DNA of 64,000 nt from an uncultured virus (IMG/VR IMGVR_UViG_3300025018_000154) (IMGVR_UViG_3300025018_000154); one strand, 5' to 3'; positions 1 through 64,000 are shown, counted from the first letter of the stretch. Notes: generated from the sequence alone by a model not told the origin. Numbers and translations are program-made.

Positions 1-1
1 G

Positions 2-13
2 GGTGCGCGGAGC
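2..13 (+). other. Putative cos (cohesive end) sequence GGTGCGCGGAGC
   Basis: At the window start; one mismatch from the Salmonella phage Chi 12-nt overhang as I recall it (GGTGCGCAGAGC); GpA-type terminase and Chi-like gene order. Confidence 0.6.
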
Positions 14-44: not shown

Positions 45-500
45 GGTTTTACCGCAGATTTTCCCGTGGGGAAGCGGATTTTACCCCCCCCGACGTTACC
101 GGCATTACCGTGGGAGCCCCCAGAACGGTAGAACAACGGTAGAGCCTTCGGTAGAACCGCAACCCCTTGAAAACCCTCATTTTTCTACCGTTTCTACCGT
201 TCTACTGAAGAATCCCTATAGAGACAAACGAGAGACAGAGAAAACAGAATGAGATTCAAAACAGAGTCTAGCCGCAGCGGGGAGACAGCTATATGGGATT
301 CCGTGGTAGAACGGTAGAAAGGTAGCCCCACCCGGGTCGTAAACGCCTGTAATATATGGGGAAAAACCGTCTACCGAAGCTCTACCGTCGTTCGGTAGAA
401 AAACGGTAGAACTCGGGAACGGCGGTAAAGTCGGTAACGCCGGTAAAAGAAAAGGCCCGAGGCGAACCCCGGGCCGGTAACGACGGTAAAGCCGGTAAAA
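45..500. repeat. Iteron-like CGGTAR/YTACCG clusters with a ~40-bp imperfect inverted repeat; candidate replication origin or terminase-binding region
   Basis: About 20 copies in alternating orientation; arms 181-220 and 290-326 are near reverse complements around a purine-rich spacer; non-coding and adjacent to the primase 3' end. Confidence 0.65.
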
Positions 501-52097: not shown

Positions 52098-55000
52098 TTA
52101 CCCGCAGGAAGACCAACCGCAATCCACGCAGGAAGAGCACCCACTTTCCCGCTTGAAATTGTAGCCGCCGCAGTTCGGACAGGGCTTCCCCTTGACCTCG
52201 AAAGCCATCTCCGGGATGGGCATCTCGGCCAGAGAGGGGTCAACCCGGAGCGCCTTGACCGGCTTGGTGATTCCCCCAACGTCCATGTGTTCGAGCAGCT
52301 TGGTCCCGATGGCCGCGAGCGTGGAGGGCTGGTAGCCCCGCTTGCCCCAGAAGCCGCCGGTCGAGGACGAGTGGATGCGCCTGAAGTCCTCCGCGATGAA
52401 GCGGGCCTCGCCCCGGCGCATCACGGCCGAGACCGTCCGGGCGATCCCGACCATCCATTCGTCGTGCGCCGGGTCGCTCGACCGCAGGAATATCTCGAAG
52501 GGCCGGGTGACGCCGTTCTCTGTGATGTCCGAGACGGTCAGGTAGACCGCCTTGTTCGAGCCGACCTTGATCTTGTAGGTCGTCCCGGACAGGGCCTCGG
52601 GTCGCTGGATCAGGTCGCCCTCGTCCCGGTCGAGTTCGAGGTTGGCCTTGGCAAAGCTCGCGGCCTGCGCCTCGATCTCTTCCGGGGACATCTCGTATTC
52701 CCGGGCTGCCTCGATCAGCTCGTCCAGATCGGGCTTCTCTTCCTTCGGGGGATCGACGGACAAGACGGAGCCCGTGACATCGTTCGGCCGGTAGGTCGTG
52801 CAGCCCTTGCAGCCCGTGTCATACGCCTGATCGTAGACTGCCTTGAAGTCCTCGAACGAGATGTCCTCCGGGCAGTTGATCGTCTTCGAGATCGACGAGT
52901 CCACGTGGCGCTGGGCGGCTGCCTGCATGATGACGTGCTCGTGCGGCTTCAGCTCTTGGGCCGTCACGAAGTAGTCGGGCAGGGGCTCGTCGCCACGCAG
53001 CTCGCGCCAGAGCTGGACGGCATAGTCCACGACCTCTTCCTCGGTGCGCGTGCCGTCCTTCTGCAAGACCTTGCGCTTGTAGGCGAGGGCGAAGACCGGC
53101 TCGATCCCGGAGGACACGTTGCCAGCGTAGAGCGAGATCGTCCCGGTCGGCGCGATGCTGGTCAACAGGGCGTTGCGGATGCCGTGCTCGCGGATCGCGG
53201 CCTTCACGTCGTCAGGCATGGTCGAGGCGTGGGTGCCGTCGGCAAGGAACTTGTCGGCATCGAAGAGCGGGAACGCCCCCTTCTCCTTTGCCAGCTCGAC
53301 CGAGGCCCGGTAGGCTTCCACGTCGATCAGGCGCATCCACTTGTCCAGCCGCTCGGCAGCCTCTTCCGTGCCATAGCGCAGGCGGACCATCATGAGTGCG
53401 TCGGCCACGCCGGTCACGCCCAGCCCGATCCGGCGCTTGTTCTCGGCCTCTTCCTTCTGCTGGGGCAGCGGGAAGTTCGAGACATCGACCACGTTGTCCA
53501 TCATGCGGACGGCCGTGTGGACGAGCTTCTTCAGGCGGTGGGAATCGAGCCCGGCGTTGTCCGCGAACGGCTTGTCGATAAGCCGGGCCAGATTGATCGA
53601 GCCGAGCAGGCACGCGCCGTAGGGAGGCAACGGCTGTTCGCCGCAAGGATTCGTAGCGGCGATGGTCTCGACGTAGTTGAGGTTGTTCGCCTTGTTGATC
53701 CGGTCGATGAAGATCACGCCGGGCTCGGCATAGCCGTAGGTGGATCGGAGAATCGTGTCCCAGAGTTCTCGGGCGTTGACGACCCGGTGGACGTAGCGCG
53801 GCAGGCCGTCTCCGTCCCGGCCGGTGCTCCCCAGATGATCCAGAATCTCGGTATTCAGGCCAGAGTGCGGGCCGGTAGCAGGCGGCTCGACATGGACAAG
53901 AGGCCAGTCTGCATCCGACCGAACCGCCTTCATGAAGTCGTCTGTCACCAGCACGCTCATGTTGAACATGCGCAGGCGCGCGGCGTCCTGCTTGGCGGTG
54001 ATGAAGTCTTCGATGTCCGGGTGGTCGCAGCGCATGGTCGCCATCATGGCTCCCCGTCGTGATCCTGCGGACATGACCGTTCGGCACATGGCGTCCCAGC
54101 AGTCCATGAAGGTCAGCGGGCCGGAGGCGTCCGCGCCGAGCTTCTTGACCAAGGCACCCTTCGGCCGGATCGGGCTGAAGTCGTAGCCGATGCCCCCGCC
54201 CTGCTGCATGGTCAGAGCCGCTTCCTTCAGCATCGAGAAGATGCCGTCCATCGAGTCGGGGATCGTCCCCATCACGAAGCATTGCCCCGTGTGGATGCCG
54301 AGATCGAGTTGCACCGAATCCGTCGAAAGAACACGAGGACAATAGACCGGCTCCGGGTCCGCATACGACCCAATCTCGATAACTTCCCAGCCGGGTTCCG
54401 ACGCCACGAAGTTCGCAAGATGCTTGGCAAGAAGGAAGTCATCTTCGGTCATCGTCCAGCGGTGGAAGCCGACATTGAACAGCGGTTTGTTGCGAGGCCC
54501 AAGATTGGTCTTCGTAGGTTGCGCCGTAGCGAAGGAAACCTCCATCCCGGCAATCGCACCGAACTTGCGAAGCCATGCGAGTTCTTCTTCCCCGCAGGAA
54601 AGAATGGCCTTCATATCACGGGCACAAACGCTGCCATCCGTGGCGAGCCAGCCACGAAGAAAGCCCGTGAGGTATTCGACATTGTGGGTGATCGAAGACG
54701 GGAGAGCCTTCAGATCAAGACGAATACCCGTAAGACGAACGAGGGGGTCCCCGTCGAAACTGGGCGGTTCCGTAATAGCGACACCCGGATGCGAATCGAA
54801 GAACTCGATAAGATCAGCCTTGTCCCCGCAGAGGCGGATACGGAACGAACGAAGGCCCTCGGTGTTGGTGGATTCCAAAGAGCCATCACCGTAGATCAGG
54901 CCGTGGGCAACTCCGAGACGGTAGGACGGGCAGTCTTCGACTTCCTTACGGCGGACGAACTTCAACTTGTCCCCAGCGGCGAGTTGTTCTGTGGTTTTCT

Positions 55001-55493
55001 CAGAACCGTCGGCCATGACCCAGCGATGCCCAGCAGTCGCCCGGATCGTCTTGCGCTTCCGACGATTATATCCGCCTGCGAGAATGACATTCGCCACGGG
55101 CTGTTCTCCGAACGAGTTGATCGGAGCAGCAATCCATTCGCCGTTCCCGTCGAGAACATGGACGTTCATGCCCGCGATCTCGCCAATCTGCACGAGGCCG
55201 TGTTCTTTCGTCAGAATCGTCGTGTCGGCAGCGAGGCAGTTGAACAAGGTCACACTGCGCCCGGTGCCCGCGCCTGCGGTGATCCGCCCGGCGGGGAGAT
55301 ACTGGAAGTCTTCGAGCGCCTTGTAGAACTCGTCCTCGCGCTCGATGTCGAGCCCTTCCGGCTCGGCCAGCGCCCCGGCGATCCTGCGCCACGTGTCCTC
55401 GACGGTCTGGTCAACCGGCGTGCCGTGGTTGTCCTTCAGGCGGTATTTCATATCCCAGATTTGCTCGGAGATAGGAGCAGAGAAGCGTGTCAT
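52098..55493 (-). CDS. nrdJ: Class II (B12-dependent) ribonucleotide reductase with intein, C-terminal TSCPD-like domain and zinc ribbon
   Basis: [44 protein letters not shown]. Confidence 0.93.
54282..55238 (-). mobile_element. 319-aa intein with LAGLIDADG endonuclease, ending in Gln
   Basis: [10 protein letters not shown]...[15 protein letters not shown] block B; HGLIYGDG and RGWLATDG; lower GC than flanks. Confidence 0.9.
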
Positions 55494-58913: not shown

Positions 58914-59384
58914 TCAGGCTGGATCGGCAAGTCTGGTGCGATCTGCTCGGCAAGCGTCGATGTCGAAAGCTGCGTTGAGCTGGCGAACCCCTGCCCACTG
59001 CTGGCGACAGTAAAGGGCCAAGGTCAAGTCGAGCCGTTGGGCCAAGCTGGCGTTCTCTGGGGACGGGACTTCGGCAATGCGCTGGGCGGCGAAGAGCATA
59101 AGGGTCTCGCACTCTGCGACGTGGACCGGAAGGTGGGAAGTGAAGTTGTTGGCGCAGTAATCGAGCGCAGCGTTGATCTCGGCCAAGGTCGTTCGTTCCG
59201 AGAGGTTGGCCGGGAAGCTCCGAATCACCCCGGAGTCGATGACCCGGGCTTGGTCGGCCGTGAGCGGGTTGTCCGTGATGGTCTCCCAGAGGTCTTTCGG
59301 CGTCGGGAACATGACCACCGTGGCAGTCATGATTGCAGCAAAAGCGTGAGAGATCATTCCGTTCATAGTTAAACCATTTGCCAT
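58914..59384 (-). CDS. Hypothetical protein, possibly exported
   Basis: Hydrophobic N-terminus, four Cys; start uncertain. Confidence 0.5.
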   Translation of the reverse strand: MANGLTMNGMISHAFAAIMTATVVMFPTPKDLWETITDNPLTADQARVIDSGVIRSFPANLSERTTLAEINAALDYCANNFTSHLPVHVAECETLMLFAAQRIAEVPSPENASLAQRLDLTLALYCRQQWAGVRQLNAAFDIDACRADRTRLADPA

Positions 59385-59515
59385 TTGTGTCTCCGGGGCT
59401 TTCCCATCTCACCGCTCGCAATGGCCCCGGGGGCTATGCGCTCGGTCGGTCGCCGCGCTGGCGGACCTTGGCGCTAAGACATACGCGAGCTTGGGTTGCC
59501 TGTCAAAGCCGCCGG

Positions 59516-59588
59516 AAATTTTGAACGGGCCAGACTCCCGAAGTAGTGGCGAAAAAATTTTGAACGGGCCAGACTCCCGAAGTAGTGG
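59516..59588. repeat. Perfect 34-bp direct repeat x2
   Basis: AAATTTTGAACGGGCCAGACTCCCGAAGTAGTGG at 59516 and 59555. Confidence 0.9.
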
Positions 59589-59839
59589 AGCGGCGGGTCC
59601 GTGCGCTTGCAGGTAGAACTCTTGATCCGGGCGCACCGTTCCCTCTCGCGGGTGGATCGGCCGCGCGATTCGCAAGATTCCGCCGTTCACGGGACGTTCC
59701 GGGAACATCGCAACCCATTGGAATCGTTGACGGAATCCGGCCCCCCGGGGGCGATCGCACGCGGAACGGCCCGCAACCCGTTGAAACTAAACGGTTTTTC
59801 GCGTTCCGGGGGCGAAAACCGCCCGCCGGGCCGCGATCC

Positions 59840-60115
59840 GGGCCAGCTCGGCCGCCGGGGGCGAGGGCGAGGGCCGCCAGCTCGGCCGCGATCCGGGGCG
59901 AGGGCGTGGGCCAGCTCGGCCGGGCGTCATGAGGGGGCGAGGGCCGCCAGCTCGGCCGGGCGTCATGAGGGCCGCCAGCTCGGCCGCCGTGGGGCCGCCT
60001 TCAGCTCGGCCGGGGGCGAGGGCGTGGGGCCGCCTTCAGCTCGGCCGGGGGCGAGGGCGTGGGGCCGGGCGGACGTGCGAACGCCCCCGGCGGGCGGCCG
60101 AGGGCGTGGGGCGGA
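59840..60115. repeat. Non-coding GC-rich array of CAGCTCGGCCG and GAGGGCGTGGG units
   Basis: Seven CAGCTCGGCCG copies between 59844 and 60050, about 26-36 bp apart. Confidence 0.85.
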
Positions 60116-60117
60116 TA

Positions 60118-60142
60118 TGAAAACGCCCCCGGGCCGGGGGCG
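60118..60142 (-). terminator. Putative intrinsic terminator of the right-end operon
   Basis: CGCCCCC stem with GGGGGCG, followed by TTTT on minus. Confidence 0.55.
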
Positions 60143-60156
60143 CGGGGGCGTGGGTT

Positions 60157-60375
60157 TCAACGGCGGCCGGTTTTTCGGTCTAACTCTTCAGACGGCCCTG
60201 GCCGGGCCAGATAGGTGACGCCCGCGACAAGGGCGAAGGCGAGGGCGTGCGGGGGTCCTTTCCAGAATAGCGCGACGGCGGCCGCGAGGGCGAAGGCGAG
60301 GCAAAGGAAACGGGCCGCGCCCTCGGCCGCCATATGCCCCCGCAACCGGGCGCGCGTTCGGTTGCGTTCCGTCAT
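60157..60375 (-). CDS. Small membrane protein
   Basis: Two hydrophobic segments; ATGA-coupled. Confidence 0.6.
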   Translation of the reverse strand: MTERNRTRARLRGHMAAEGAARFLCLAFALAAAVALFWKGPPHALAFALVAGVTYLARPGPSEELDRKTGRR

Positions 60376-61508
60376 GCCGGGAACCGTTCAACGCCCGCGC
60401 CCTCGCAAAATGCCGCCCGGGCGTCCGCGTCCGGGTAGAAAATGAAGGGCGACTCGTCGCCTTCAGCAAGGCGGGCACGCTCGGCCATAAGCTCGGCCCG
60501 GGCCGCCAGCTTGCCCCGGATCGCCTCGCAAAAAATAGCGTGAGTCCGGGGCATTTCCTCGGCCGTTGCCGCGTGCAATCTGTTTTGACGCAATGCCGCC
60601 AAAACCTCGGCCCGGATCGCCGCGAGGCGTTCGCCCGCGTCCGCCCACGCGGAACCGGCCCCCCATGCGGTTTTATATTCCCGTTCCGCCTCGGCCACGG
60701 TTTCGGCCATGCTATCGGCCCGGCGGGCGCAATCCTCGGCCGCCTCTTCAGCGTCCGACTCCTCGCGGCCCTCGGCCACAACGGCGGCCCGCATGTCGAA
60801 TTGCGCGCCCCCTTGGCAATCGTCGCCTAACCGCCAGCCCGGAACAAAAACCGCCCGGCCGTCGCGCCCGCGCAACTGGCCCACGACTCCCACGATAAGC
60901 CCGGAACCGTCGCGGAACGACTCGCCGTGCGGGTTGTCATAATATCCCGTATGGCCGAGGCGGGCGAGGGCGTGGGCGTCGCGGATATTGCGAACCGTGC
61001 CGCCGTCATAAAGGGCGAAGAATTGCCCGCCCTTGTCGCCCGCCGCCATATGCCGGGGGCCGCCCTCGCCTTGCCAGAATCCCGCGCCATAATCCGGCCC
61101 GGGGGCCGCGCATAGATTGCGAAGGCGGGCAACCTCGGCCCGGGCGCGGGCGTGCCGCCGTTCGGCCATGTCATAGGCCCCGGCGGCCGCCGTTACCGCT
61201 TGCGCGGCCGCCTCATATGCCGGGCCGCCCTCGCGGGCCAGCGATTGCGCCGCGAGCTTTGCCGCGTTCGATTCCTCGCGGGCGTGATCGCGGGCGACGG
61301 CCGAGTCTTCATACTCGGCCCGGGCGTCGCGGAACGCGGCAAGGTTCGCCCGCGCCTTGTGCAAGGCATAGGCGGCCGCGCCTTTCCCGTCATGGGGCGA
61401 GTCGTATCGCTGGCCCATGAAGGCGGGCAAGGGCGCGGCCGTCTGAAGGGCGGACGCGGGGGCCGGGAACGTCCGGGCGCGGGCAAAGGCGGTTGCGAGG
61501 TTTTCCAT
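60372..61508 (-). CDS. Ala-rich hypothetical protein (early region)
   Basis: GAAGGA RBS before MENLAT; HTGYYDN..GVVGQL core. Confidence 0.75.
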   Translation of the reverse strand: MENLATAFARARTFPAPASALQTAAPLPAFMGQRYDSPHDGKGAAAYALHKARANLAAFRDARAEYEDSAVARDHAREESNAAKLAAQSLAREGGPAYEAAAQAVTAAAGAYDMAERRHARARAEVARLRNLCAAPGPDYGAGFWQGEGGPRHMAAGDKGGQFFALYDGGTVRNIRDAHALARLGHTGYYDNPHGESFRDGSGLIVGVVGQLRGRDGRAVFVPGWRLGDDCQGGAQFDMRAAVVAEGREESDAEEAAEDCARRADSMAETVAEAEREYKTAWGAGSAWADAGERLAAIRAEVLAALRQNRLHAATAEEMPRTHAIFCEAIRGKLAARAELMAERARLAEGDESPFIFYPDADARAAFCEGAGVERFPA

Positions 61509-61509
61509 A

Positions 61510-61603
61510 GTGAGTCCTTCAGGTTGTGCCCCGGGGGGCGGGTTGTCGCCTCTCATGAGGGCGGGAACGGGGGCGGGTTGTCCGCCCCCTAACCGGCCGT
61601 CAC
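61510..61603 (-). repeat. Conserved structured intergenic leader, copy 1
   Basis: Near-identical to 63847-63942, with three hairpins and the RBS. Confidence 0.8.
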
Positions 61604-61722
61604 GCCTTGCGGGCGTAGTATATCCAACGGCCCCCGGGCGATTGCCGCCGGGCGTTGTCAGAATTGCGGAGTCCGCCCCGTTGCCGCCAGCTCGCGGCCG
61701 TGATGCGAGTCCAGCCGGTCAC
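61600..61722 (-). CDS. 40-aa basic hypothetical protein
   Basis: GTGA-coupled; MTGWTRITAASWRQRGGLRNSDNARRQSPGGRWIYYARKA; below the ORF-track cutoff. Confidence 0.55.
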   Translation of the reverse strand: MTGWTRITAASWRQRGGLRNSDNARRQSPGGRWIYYARKA

Positions 61723-61868
61723 GCCTTGCACGCTCGCGAGCTGGCGGCATATGAGGCGGACGAGTCGGCCGCGTTATATTCCCGGGCGAGGCGGAACGCC
61801 TCGGCCATTGTCTCGGCCGAGTCCACGGTTTCAACGTCGCGGCCGTCATGGCGATTCACGTATGGCAT
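61719..61868 (-). CDS. 49-aa hypothetical protein
   Basis: AAAGGACTCAC RBS; MPYVNRHDGRDVETVD...RACKA. Confidence 0.65.
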   Translation of the reverse strand: MPYVNRHDGRDVETVDSAETMAEAFRLAREYNAADSSASYAASSRACKA

Positions 61869-61922
61869 TGTGAGTCCTTTCCTGAAGGGGGGCCGCCCGG
61901 ATCGCCCGGGCGGCCGGTTGCG

Positions 61923-63842
61923 TTAGGCGTGGGCGCGGGTTTCGGTTGTATCGGCCGGGGCCAGCTCGGCCACGCCTAACCGTTCCGCAAGGGCGGAAAC
62001 CTCGGCCCACGCGATCCGGTGGCAACCGGCCCGGAATCCGCCGTCGGATTCTACCCGGTCAATTCGGAATTGCCCGACAGGAAGAGTCCGGCCGTTCGCT
62101 TGCCACGCCTCGCCCTTGTCGCGGCACGCCTTCAGGAACCGGAACGCCCGCAAGGCGTGGGCGAGGGGCACGCGCGCCCCTTGCGAGGTTTCCAGCTCGC
62201 CCCCCGTGATCGCCCCGGCCGCGTCGCGTTCGACTCCGTTCGCCCGGATATAGGCGGAACCGTCGGGCAAGGCGCGGGGCGTATGGCGGGCCAGCTCGGC
62301 CGGAACGCGGCCGCCGTCGCGCCATATCCGCAACGCCTCGGCCCGGGCGCGTTCGGTTTCCTCGGCCGCGATCCGGGCAAGCTCGGCCCGTTCGGTTTTC
62401 TCGGCCGCCTTCAGCTTGTCCGCCAGCTCGCGGAACCGTTCGGGAGTCCATCCGGCAACGGCCCACGCCCCCGGGATAGGGTAAAGCGAACCGGGGCGGA
62501 AACCGGCCGAGGCATAACGCCCGGCCGCGCGCGCGCCCTCGGCCATAAGGGCGGCCCGTTCGCCCGGGTTGCCCTCGCCCGCCGGGATTGTCACGGCCGC
62601 CCGGATTGCCGCCAGCTCGCGACGGCGGGCGGCCCGGGTTTCCGCCTTGCGGCAATCGTCGCCCACGGAGTCCAGCTCGGCCGCCAGCGTATGAAGGCGG
62701 GCCGCCAGCTCGGCCGGGTTGTGCCCCGCGATCCGGGCCGCCGGGGCCGCCCATGCGCCGCGCATGTCATCCGCCGGGATAAGGGCGGCCGCCAGCTCGC
62801 GCGCCTTATCCGCGCCCCGGTCAATATCATATGCGCCCCCGGGCCGGTTGCCGCCCGTTACCTTGACTCGAACCTCGCGCCCCTCGCGGAACGCCTCGGC
62901 CACGCGGACGCCCTCGCGAACGCCCGCAACCCGGCCTCGCCAGATTGCGAGTCGGTTCGCCCTCATGTCCGCCGCGTCAAAGGCGGGCAACGTGGCCCGG
63001 ATCGCGGCCCGGACGGCGGACGCCTTGCGAACGCGGGCCACGTGCCCGGCCGCCTTGCCCGCCTTCATTGCGCGCAATATCTCGCGGCCCACGCTTTCCC
63101 ATTGGCCCGACTCATATGCGACGGCCCCGCCCTTGCCCGCAACCCGGCGGGCGTCCGCCGTCATACGTTCCACAACCTCGGCCGGATTCGTCCGGGCGAA
63201 CCTTGCGAGGGCCGCCAGCTCGGCCCGGGTTTTCGCCTTTGCCTTTTCAACGGCGGCACGCTCGGCCGCCTTGCCCGCCTTTGCCACAATGGCGGCCGCC
63301 CGCCGTTCCGGGTTGTCCGCTTGTGCCGCCTTCAAAACCTCGGCCACGCTGGCGGCAATGTCCGCCCGGCCCTCGGCCGAGGCGTTGCGCGGATCGCCGG
63401 GCAGGTTGTCCGGTTTCGCAAAATGCGCGGCAAGGCGCGGCACGGCATAGCGGGCAACCTCGCGGGCGTTCGGTTCGCCATATTCCGACGGGAAACAACC
63501 GGGATTCAGACGGGGCGAGGCATTGCGCAAGGCGTCCGCCAGAATCTCGGCCACGGGATTCAGGTTCGGAATCCAAACGCGGCCCCGGTGGCGGGTTGCG
63601 CTTGCCGCGTTTGAAACGTGCCGCGAGGTTGAAACGGAATAGGAGTCCGCATTGATAAGGGCGACGCCCACGCCCGCCGGATTGCCCGGGGCCGGGGCCA
63701 GATACGCCGCGACATAATGGCGGCCATATGAATAAAGGGCGCGGCCCTCAAAAAATAGATTCCCGTTATGCGAACGCCCCGACTCTTGCGAGAATTGCGC
63801 GAAAACATGGGCTGTCATAGCGTTGTCAAATACCGTTGCCAT
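61923..63842 (-). CDS. Large Ala-rich hypothetical protein (early region)
   Basis: 639 aa; LYSYGRHY, YSVSTSRH, LETSQGARVP, AGCHRIAW; GAAGGA RBS. Confidence 0.8.
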   Translation of the reverse strand: MATVFDNAMTAHVFAQFSQESGRSHNGNLFFEGRALYSYGRHYVAAYLAPAPGNPAGVGVALINADSYSVSTSRHVSNAASATRHRGRVWIPNLNPVAEILADALRNASPRLNPGCFPSEYGEPNAREVARYAVPRLAAHFAKPDNLPGDPRNASAEGRADIAASVAEVLKAAQADNPERRAAAIVAKAGKAAERAAVEKAKAKTRAELAALARFARTNPAEVVERMTADARRVAGKGGAVAYESGQWESVGREILRAMKAGKAAGHVARVRKASAVRAAIRATLPAFDAADMRANRLAIWRGRVAGVREGVRVAEAFREGREVRVKVTGGNRPGGAYDIDRGADKARELAAALIPADDMRGAWAAPAARIAGHNPAELAARLHTLAAELDSVGDDCRKAETRAARRRELAAIRAAVTIPAGEGNPGERAALMAEGARAAGRYASAGFRPGSLYPIPGAWAVAGWTPERFRELADKLKAAEKTERAELARIAAEETERARAEALRIWRDGGRVPAELARHTPRALPDGSAYIRANGVERDAAGAITGGELETSQGARVPLAHALRAFRFLKACRDKGEAWQANGRTLPVGQFRIDRVESDGGFRAGCHRIAWAEVSALAERLGVAELAPADTTETRAHA

Positions 63843-63846
63843 ATCG

Positions 63847-63942
63847 TGAGTCCTTCAGGTTGTGCCCCTATCCGGGGCGGGTTGTCGCCTCTCATGAGGG
63901 CGGGAAGGGCGGCCCGTGGGGGCCGCCTAACCGGCCGTCACG
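63847..63942 (-). repeat. Conserved structured intergenic leader, copy 2
   Basis: Matches 61510-61603 with a different hairpin-1 sequence. Confidence 0.8.
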
Positions 63943-64000
63943 TGACGGGATGGAACCGGGCCAGAATTGCGGCCACGTCGCCCGCTAGGGCCGTTTCCAG

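Follow-up and report, generated by a model that had tools for sequence, protein, structure and literature searches.

Among the closest described counterparts of the locus reported here is the first-step-transfer (FST) DNA of phage T5, which makes up ~8% of the T5 genome and has a repeat-rich region at its end; in T5 the host DNA is destroyed before second-step transfer. The locus itself is a block at the right-hand end of 64,000 nucleotides of DNA from an uncultured virus (IMG/VR IMGVR_UViG_3300025018_000154; positions 1-64000, here called the window), from which some 20 tetranucleotides have been purged. The right edge of the window falls inside this purged block, and the genome continues past position 64000. 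The block resembles T5 FST DNA in being a fixed-end terminal segment with early-type genes, in lacking sites found commonly in the rest of the genome and in having a repeat-rich border. T5 FST DNA differs in lying within a long terminal repeat, in its experimentally demonstrated two-step entry and in lacking single hexamer sites, whereas the block belongs to a genome with 12-nt cos ends and has lost about 20 tetramers. We know of no staged entry in phages related to Salmonella phage Chi, the group to which this phage is assigned below. Our reading, held with somewhat better than even confidence, is that the purged block is the leading, early-operon segment of the genome and is under selection to avoid host defence.

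The sensitivity of first-entering DNA to restriction has been described in several settings, PMC12455610 being the main source here. T5 becomes sensitive once a site is placed in its FST DNA (cited in PMC12455610), and in the T7-like Murciavirus type I restriction exerts pressure on the leading, hypervariable region alone, with sites elsewhere being tolerated (PMC12455610). In the logic given there for T5- and T7-like phages, which draws on the roles of Ocr and the T5 pre-early genes, neutralisable sites need be absent only from the DNA that is exposed before the early proteins (PMC12455610). The block is like the early-injected region of Murciavirus in that a leading, hypervariable region alone appears to be under restriction pressure and sites elsewhere are tolerated; Murciavirus, unlike the present case, involves one bipartite motif, podoviruses and transcription-driven entry, whereas the block is found in a siphovirus of the Casjensviridae type, shows a broad and lineage-specific purge and is known here from sequence alone. 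The leading regions of conjugative plasmids likewise represent first-entering DNA with few restriction targets and many anti-defence genes (cited in PMC12455610), but their entry is single-stranded and by conjugation, and their gene families are different. A literature search retrieved the principle (PMC12455610) and turned up no account of a comparable block for phages of the Chi type.

Regarding the depleted words, the original prediction, made from the sequence of the window, had reported very low counts of five tetramers in positions 60372-64000, and these were reproduced exactly (ACCA 0, GCAG 1, CACC 2, GACC 3 and CATC 4, each with its complement). Across the block from 59660 to 64000, the density in the rest of the window predicts 32.5 ACCA/TGGT, 54 GCAG/CTGC, 40.4 CACC/GGTG, 71.6 GACC/GGTC and 42.9 CATC/GATG, and 0, 1, 3, 5 and 5 are seen (447, 743, 556, 985 and 590, respectively, in 1-59659); under a second-order Markov model of the block, 7.3, 18.8, 16.7, 24.9 and 22.2 would still be expected. 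The GC content of the block is 70.6%, vs 63.6% for the remaining window. The border had been put at about 59660, and changepoint analysis agreed, giving a sharp transition with a maximum-likelihood rate changepoint at 59,710 and the final occurrence at normal spacing at 59,651. Gaps between occurrences of the five words have a median of 13 bp window-wide, and the longest gap within the block is 1,448 bp. The depletion is wider than first described, since 21 of the 114 tetramers with an expectation of at least 10 are present in the block at no more than 20% of the expectation from the rest of the window. In a separate, unbiased scan, many more words proved depleted, among them AGCC, CCAA, CTCC, CTTC, CAGG, ACAC and AAGT. 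The depletion had been described as a purge of asymmetric tetramers, of the kind that form the cores of asymmetric restriction sites (for example CAGCAG of EcoP15I, AGACC of EcoP1I, GGTGA of HphI and GGATG of FokI); the stress on asymmetry did not hold, because depletion of 20 of 105 asymmetric and one of nine palindromic tetramers (TCGA) means that the emphasis on asymmetry mirrors base rates alone.

For comparisons along and between genomes, a purge statistic was used, defined as the number of tetramers per 1.5-kb interval with an expectation of at least 5 and an observed count of at most 20% of it. In the window this statistic is 12-24 in the block and at most 4 elsewhere (116 intervals), all of the first ten intervals at the left end giving 0. 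The site depletion is restricted to one terminal segment and goes beyond composition and codon controls. In a relative that is 97% identical (L011), the purge begins at the contig end, covers ~5.5 kb and breaks off sharply on its inner side; this contig has an additional 1,427 bp upstream of the gene for a 639-aa protein, with further open reading frames (ORFs) in the same orientation. Because of this extension, and because the longest contig bearing the 378-aa protein of the window is 66,694 bp, the full block is probably ~5.5-7 kb, or 8-10% of the genome.

Codon choice in the block had been said to shift toward CAA, TAT, CAT and ATT, and this shift is real and extends to GTT: Gln is encoded by CAA in 83% of cases in the block vs 19% in the rest, Tyr by TAT in 85% vs 27%, His by CAT in 42% vs 14%, Ile by ATT in 31% vs 11% and Val by GTT in 40% vs 10%. 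Amino-acid composition fails to explain the depletion. In 1000 codon shuffles that kept the proteins of the four block ORFs, with counts taken from the coding part of the block, 0, 1, 3, 4 and 2 occurrences of the ACCA, GCAG, CACC, GACC and CATC pairs were seen, whereas codons drawn from rest-of-genome usage predict 6.1, 41.5, 22.7, 29.5 and 20.1 and synonymous permutation of the block's own codons predicts 5.2, 26.2, 17.4, 19.4 and 17.6. None of 1000 shuffles came down to the observed level, apart from a single one of 1000 for ACCA when the block's own codons were permuted. As permutation of the block's own codons still predicts many of these words, the depletion resides in codon juxtaposition. 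On the mRNA strand both orientations of a word are depleted (GCAG 0 seen for 12.6 expected and CTGC 1 for 13.1; AGCC 1 for 14.8 and GGCT 2 for 13.1), which argues against an mRNA-level or codon-level cause.

These controls bear on the idea that the block reflects expression-related or physical constraints, such as the needs of early transcription and translation, mRNA-cleaving toxins or the mechanics of the last-packaged and first-ejected DNA. The coincidence of the block with a discrete transcription unit carrying repeated intergenic hairpins, together with its unusual codon choice, would suit such a constraint; the depletion is, however, symmetric between strands, affects non-coding DNA equally, including ~450 bp past the terminator, depends on codon context and not on codon frequency, and differs by lineage, unlike a universal physical rule, so that we consider a constraint of this kind very unlikely.

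The same depletion was followed through different parts of the block with totals for 22 words, the list of which was picked from the whole block, so that the sizes of the ratios are somewhat favoured. Conserved domain-coding segments have 10 vs 36, 9 vs 40 and 19 vs 63 (seen vs expected), the variable Ala-rich helical segment of the 639-aa ORF 13 vs 94, the variable N-terminal half of the 378-aa ORF 7 vs 37, and non-coding stretches 5 vs 88, 8 vs 37, 0 vs 9.6 and 4 vs 28, while totals are normal in five control regions elsewhere in the window, which are mostly intergenic. Low-complexity, Ala-rich coding sequence derived from repeats, or a chimeric assembly, might have been suspected of producing an artefact, given the lower tetramer entropy of the block (6.2-6.3 vs 6.6-6.8 bits), its many short repeats (e.g., CTCGGCC) and the Ala content of its proteins (22-31% vs 7-17% in 14 other proteins). 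Conserved, non-repetitive domains and non-coding DNA are nevertheless purged alike, so the low-complexity or repeat explanation is rejected. Regarding assembly, the block is present in 24 sequencing runs from 21 studies, with no RNA run listed among them; four of these runs were examined (aquifer, hot spring, cold spring and groundwater), and in all four one contig runs from 59,559 to 59,958 or beyond, across the changepoint, with 0 mismatches. Breaks in the contigs fall only at the 34-bp direct repeat and within the tandem array. With relatives displaying the same pattern as well, an artefact is scarcely credible. Searches of the block against named phages by megablast gave no match, and neither did an exact-pattern scan of viral contigs for the end of the window; a near-identical 28-kb fragment (G001) does not reach into the purged block.

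The purge is also actively maintained. Identity to L011 is 99.5-99.9% in the flanks and 95.4-96.5% in the block, which differs by 252 substitutions, and across these the purged-word totals go from 87 to 101 and from 14 to 13; the same 252 changes placed at random give 197±12 and 55±6, and none of 1000 placements was as low. A recent import or chimeric join, which had been named as a way in which the original prediction could fail, is ruled out by the runs spanning the changepoint and by this maintenance. The depletion is thus a selected, regional property at the level of DNA, for which composition, codon usage, repeats, a chimeric join and a one-off import fail as causes.

Natural variants in other metagenomes differ by ~3% in the block vs 0.1-0.3% beside it. 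The divergence from L011 is patchy at 60500-60750 and 61500-62000, where some 250-bp bins have 88-164 differences and adjoining bins 0; this patchiness and a 49-aa ORF without counterpart in L011 indicate that segments were replaced by recombination.

Regarding recurrence, related phages show the purge at the same end, in S-ESS1, in the relative G002 and in L011, and more weakly in Chi. The purge statistic is 9-10 in the right-terminal block of S-ESS1 (at most 5 elsewhere, 108 intervals) and 5-10 in that of G002 (at most 3 elsewhere, 110 intervals); in Chi it is sustained at 3-5 from ~53 kb and mostly 0-2, with a maximum of 5, elsewhere. In Erythrobacter phage R16L, which has a different backbone, the purge covers ~6 kb around the homologue of the 639-aa gene. 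Among 80 metagenome loci, the 17 with at least 10 kb of sequence were tested for a purge around their homologue of this gene, and 7 showed a strong purge (at least 8), 2 a moderate one (6-7) and 8 none; in six of the seven long contigs with a strong purge the block is located at or beside the contig end. In phiCbK-like phages, a homologue of the C-terminal domain of the 639-aa protein is found in the terminal repeats, and the phiCbK terminal repeat is mildly purged (1-6 vs 0).

The vocabulary of the purge is lineage-specific. Log-ratios of words between block and rest correlate only with pairwise r of 0.22-0.55 among four phages, in all of which GACC is low in the block. CACC is purged in the window (3/40) and enriched in G002 (100/49), ACCG is purged in R16L alone (1/65) and CTTC is purged in G002. 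Within-gene codon permutation was applied to 22 near-full-length homologues from the 80 loci and to the window's own gene, one locus with a short ORF being dropped; 13 of the 22 homologues have at least three purged words, in differing sets (CTTC and GAGC in L013; CCAC, CCCC and CCTC in L049; ACCC, CCCC and GGGA in L078/79), and five have none, while eight control genes of the window have 0-1.

Such data could also be read as a mobile early-gene cassette, a mosaic module exchanged among phages, whose vocabulary was shaped elsewhere or by many hosts and whose position at the end is incidental. Divergence is 10-30 times higher in the block than in its flanks, segments of the block have been replaced patchily, and homologous purged blocks are found on different backbones (R16L, L046 and L049). 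Exchange would, however, merely relocate the question of the purging agent; the purge is kept after divergence, the strongly purged long contigs have the block at or beside their ends in the proportion given above, and the gene order is conserved, with the 639-aa gene followed by the 394-aa gene, an HD phosphatase and the ribonucleotide reductase in S-ESS1, G002/L003, L011 and L039. On balance an incidental cassette appears improbable.

Outside the block a different kind of avoidance was found. Of the palindromic hexamers with an expectation of at least 10, 26 of 34 are present at 20% or less, most of them at 0, compared with 10 of 1,376 non-palindromic hexamers, the near-absent asymmetric hexamers in 1-59659 including CTGGAG (0 vs 26 expected), CTGAAC, GGATCT, ACTGGG and GAGGAG. 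In the same region GTAC is seen 0 times vs 99 expected, CCWGG (CCAGG/CCTGG) 2 vs 162 and CTAG 12 vs 84. On this sequence evidence, the lineage appears to be under heavy restriction-type pressure in the remainder of its genome too, and of a different kind there. There are two layers of avoidance, palindromes being avoided throughout and ~20 mostly non-palindromic tetramers in the terminal block alone. The first layer is like the genome-wide palindrome avoidance of phages in general and is strong here outside the block; unlike it, the second layer is regional and concerns mostly non-palindromic tetramers that are unavoided elsewhere. This two-layer pattern would fit the T5/T7-like logic.

Other origins considered for the word list were dropped. 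A link between the purged words and the cos sequence was given up as few words overlap, and avoidance of CRISPR protospacer-adjacent motifs, phosphorothioate-type 3-4 bp motifs and mRNA-interferase sites does not fit the word list or the strand symmetry. In the right block of Chi, enterobacterial sites are low (GATCAG 0 vs 6.1, CAGCAG 1 vs 7.9 and AGACC 3 vs 11.8), and many other words are low there too, so this depletion is non-specific.

Regarding the identity of the phage, the Chi-like assignment and the cos end at position 1 had both been proposed beforehand, and both stood. PHROG and Pfam annotation, compared with the annotated Chi and S-ESS1 records, revealed the gene order of Salmonella phage Chi, running from a minus-strand primase at the left end through a regulator, exonuclease, DNA polymerase and helicase to the small and large terminase, portal, head and tail genes and a leftward nucleotide-metabolism arm at the right. 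The nearest named relative, S-ESS1, is classified in the Casjensviridae, and gene content thus identifies the window phage as a Chi-like siphovirus of the Casjensviridae type. Positions 2-13 of the window are identical at 11 of 12 positions to GGTGCGCAGAGC, the 12-nt 5' cohesive end determined for Chivirus (PMC9409062, Table 2), and the match means that the window begins at the left cos end. The first 12 nt of the phage Chi record (NC_025442) are likewise GGTGCGCAGAGC, and in G002 GGTGCGCTGAGC is located 66 nt from the contig end. The same left end in three assemblies indicates a fixed-end, non-permuted genome.

Table 1. Features of the window at its left end and in and around the purged block (strand., none assigned).
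Feature	Position	Strand	Remarks
Left cohesive end (cos)	1..13	.	Positions 2-13 = GGTGCGCGGAGC
CGGTAGARC cluster	46..492	.	12 copies (at most 1 mismatch), between left cos end and primase gene
Paired 34-bp element	59516..59588 (59516-59549 + 59555-59588)	.	Just outside the purged block
Changepoint of word purge	59655..59710	.	Maximum-likelihood fit and occurrence spacing
Purged block	59660..64000	.	4,341 bp seen; extends past 64000 as far as the right end of the genome
GC-rich tandem arrays, periods 34-42	59842..60154	.	7 co-oriented CAGCTCGGCC copies
Intrinsic-terminator-like hairpin and T-run	60123..60143	-	End of the leftward operon
72-aa ORF	60157..60375	-	Basic, hydrophobic; last gene of the operon
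378-aa ORF (394 aa from upstream ATG)	60372..61508	-	C-terminal half similar to phrog_8188 (unknown function)
Intergenic hairpin element, copy 1	61509..61620	-	Upstream of the 378-aa ORF; fold -50.6 kcal/mol, z -3.0
49-aa ORF	61719..61868	-	Inside a patch replaced in L011
639-aa protein	61923..63842	-	phrog_7247; basic, isoelectric point 10.1
Intergenic hairpin element, copy 2	63843..63960	-	Upstream of the 639-aa ORF; fold -52.3 kcal/mol, z -2.6

The anatomy of the boundary is ordered (Table 1). Reading leftward from the right end, the operon with the 639-, 49-, 378- and 72-aa ORFs is followed by the terminator-like hairpin (RNA fold -26.8 kcal/mol, z -3.5), the tandem arrays, the changepoint and the paired element, beyond which the next leftward gene starts at 59,384; the arrays are thus positioned between the early-type operon and the boundary element. 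The paired element occurs once in the window; S-ESS1 and G002 keep it as a pair at the equivalent boundary, 17 columns being invariant, and both relatives have the identical boundary order with lineage-specific arrays. The boundary may stop DNA entry, act as a promoter or operator of the next operon or have another role. A paired 34-36 bp element with the core ATTTTG..CGGGC..AAGTAG was observed at the inner border of the purge in three phages (the window; L001 10177-10244; L006 5579-5649).

In the reading favoured here, the block would be the inner part of a right-terminal segment of ~5.5-7 kb (8-10%) of a non-permuted, cos-ended Chi-like genome, and this segment would hold one leftward early-type operon followed by a terminator, the tandem arrays rich in GC and the conserved pair of 34-bp elements. 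In lambda-type cos phages the right end is ejected first, and from this analogy and the one-sided purge we infer that the right end of the present genome also leads entry and would be exposed to sequence-reading nucleases of the host, namely restriction-modification and related systems, before counter-measures of the phage are in place. Selection is therefore proposed to have removed short double-stranded words from that segment alone. The rest of the genome carries these tetramers freely and avoids only palindromic (type II-like) sites, which are typically beyond neutralisation by early inhibitors. Its entry would be delayed, either by a pause at the boundary or by transcription-limited pulling that halts at the terminator, and the operon products would protect it. 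The breadth of the tetramer loss may tentatively reflect selection on half-site words of many type I-like specificities in a diverse host community. Targets of type I, IIS, III or BREX-type systems had been proposed beforehand; the lineage-specific sets and the palindrome avoidance elsewhere in the genome lend only indirect support to the depleted words being sites that such host systems recognise. The more specific scheme of a two-stage delivery in Chi-like cos siphoviruses, in which the right 8-10% would enter first, transfer would halt at the array and paired element, the operon would disarm the nucleases and the rest would follow, is a tentative one that we are inclined to doubt.

Regarding the proteins of the block, the 72-aa ORF is 97% identical in L011 and matches no family. 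The 378-aa ORF has syntenic homologues in S-ESS1, L035, L037 and L039; in L045 and L079 its homologues lie upstream of the counterpart of the 639-aa gene. The model of the 639-aa protein (predicted local distance difference test, pLDDT, 85) has conserved N- and C-terminal alpha/beta domains with a long Ala-rich helical middle between them, and conserved His, Cys and Asp columns are found in both terminal domains. Foldseek returned 0 hits at E<=0.001 for this protein, and a VIA wide search returned generic helical-bundle rows only (Z<=9.7, residues 211-403). For the N-terminal domain alone (pLDDT 84) the best VIA Z was 3.2 and the best Foldseek match (E 0.16, TM 0.29) is too weak for interpretation, its alignment profile had 0 hits at E<=1 among solved structures, and a Pfam scan of 24 members of the alignment gave no consistent family. 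A protein atlas gave unnamed viral clusters only, some with a domain of unknown function (DUF).

This 639-aa protein, with its conserved His/Cys/Asp columns in two terminal domains and no known fold, could be taken to point to self-avoidance, in which the early operon or a virion protein would release a nuclease of low specificity, with short and frequent words in the host DNA as its targets; modelled on T5, the leading segment, being already inside the cell, would have to lack these words, and the rest would enter afterwards. Such a nuclease would naturally account for a tetramer-level purge on two strands, in coding and non-coding DNA alike, with a sharp inner border, and many of the purged words are among the commonest in the GC-rich remainder of the genome. 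Set against this, the purged sets differ strongly between fairly close homologues, so that the specificity of the nuclease and the block would have to co-evolve fast; no nuclease family was detected in the block, some loci bearing the homologue are unpurged, and staged entry would still be required. We therefore regard a self-avoidance nuclease as quite unlikely.

Several observations weigh against defence avoidance by a leading early operon as well. The purge is not universal, eight of the 17 long loci with a homologue of the 639-aa gene being unpurged. The four block ORFs, the Ala-rich ones among which had been put forward as anti-defence or takeover candidates, gave 0 Pfam families at E<=0.01 and matched either nothing or PHROGs of unknown function. 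Among them there is no match to an anti-restriction family and no strongly acidic, DNA-mimic-like protein of the Ocr/ArdA type, the net charges being +23, -2, -9 and +7 (-1 and -6 for two ORFs further upstream in L011); an inhibitor of an unrecognised kind may still be present. The Ala-richness of the block proteins tracks the strength of the purge, which gives it the look of a side effect of the DNA constraint and not of a functional signature; over 23 genes, which are not phylogenetically independent, the number of purged words per gene has a Spearman correlation of 0.84 with Ala+Gly+Arg+Pro content and of 0.63 with Ala, which suggests that the constraint pushes coding sequence toward G/C-only codons. 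Regarding the agent, every 5-mer that extends a word such as GACC has been lost in the window and in R16L, and this is partly so in other relatives. In 7 kb, any type I site specified by 7 bp occurs about once and a 5-mer ~10-25 times. With 5-7 bp sites so sparse, a few systems of known type cannot cause the near-total loss of ~20 tetramers in every sequence context; this breadth needs very many specificities, selection at the level of half-sites or another agent. In Chi the genes of the terminal block point outward to the end, so an operon read in the order of entry is not general. At the left end, the CGGTAGARC repeats beside the primase gene could be origin iterons instead of cosB.

The cluster of these repeats is a candidate for terminase-binding (cosB-like) sites or origin iterons; of 61 matches window-wide, 12 are inside the first 492 bp, and five of the eight exact matches are within 126-412. 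Own short repeats are present at the equivalent position in S-ESS1 and G002.

Regarding other features of the operon, the two copies of the intergenic hairpin element correspond to a repeat (D20) with a core that is 95% identical between copies; the GC-rich stem differs between the copies yet still pairs, and downstream of it there is a conserved CCCTCATGAGAGGCGACAACCCGCCCC stretch and a GAAGGA ribosome-binding site. An Rfam scan of 59000-64000 gave one sub-threshold chance row, and a sigma-70 promoter scan gave one weak, uninformative site.

Further skewed words were recorded. GANTC, which we take to be the CcrM methylation site of alphaproteobacteria, has a density of 8.75 per kb in the block vs 3.17 elsewhere (2.8-fold), and the 11 copies of GAGTCC in the block are on the plus strand only. 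CAGCTCGGCC occurs in 20 copies on the plus strand and one on the minus strand window-wide, seven of them in the tandem array (59844-60037); it was rejected as a Chi-like oriented motif, as the 20:1 skew comes mostly from the block and the array, and outside the block the skew of CAGCTCGG (20:6) is non-significant after correction. S-ESS1 has its own strand-skewed words (CGGGTG 28:0 and TCGGCGGC 26:1). In Chi (L092+L093), CAGAG/CTCTG, a Salmonella type III site, occurs in 12 copies in total, all within the first 28.3 kb and nine on one strand, and one copy lies inside the cos overhang.

The ribonucleotide reductase gene has an in-frame insertion of ~312 codons at 54285-55231 with a lower GC content (0.57), which is missing from L011, otherwise 99.5-99.9% identical there, and from L039. 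A Pfam search of the insertion found no domain, and its features suggest an intein or other mobile insertion.

The principle that restriction pressure concentrates on first-injected DNA has been demonstrated for T5 and, as of 2025, also for T7-like phages; in the present case a very large sequence footprint is found in another family, the lambda-style cos siphoviruses related to Chi. The enrichment of Ala, Gly, Arg and Pro that follows the strength of the purge may illustrate how selection at the level of DNA reshapes the composition of proteins. If the reading of the block as a leading segment is true, the purged vocabulary would be a sequence-only readout of the cutting carried out by the local host community (e.g., type I half-sites). 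For uncultured phages, a simple k-mer scan could then tell which end leads and where the early region and its border lie, so that injection polarity and first-step regions would become mappable computationally, and could point to new anti-defence genes.

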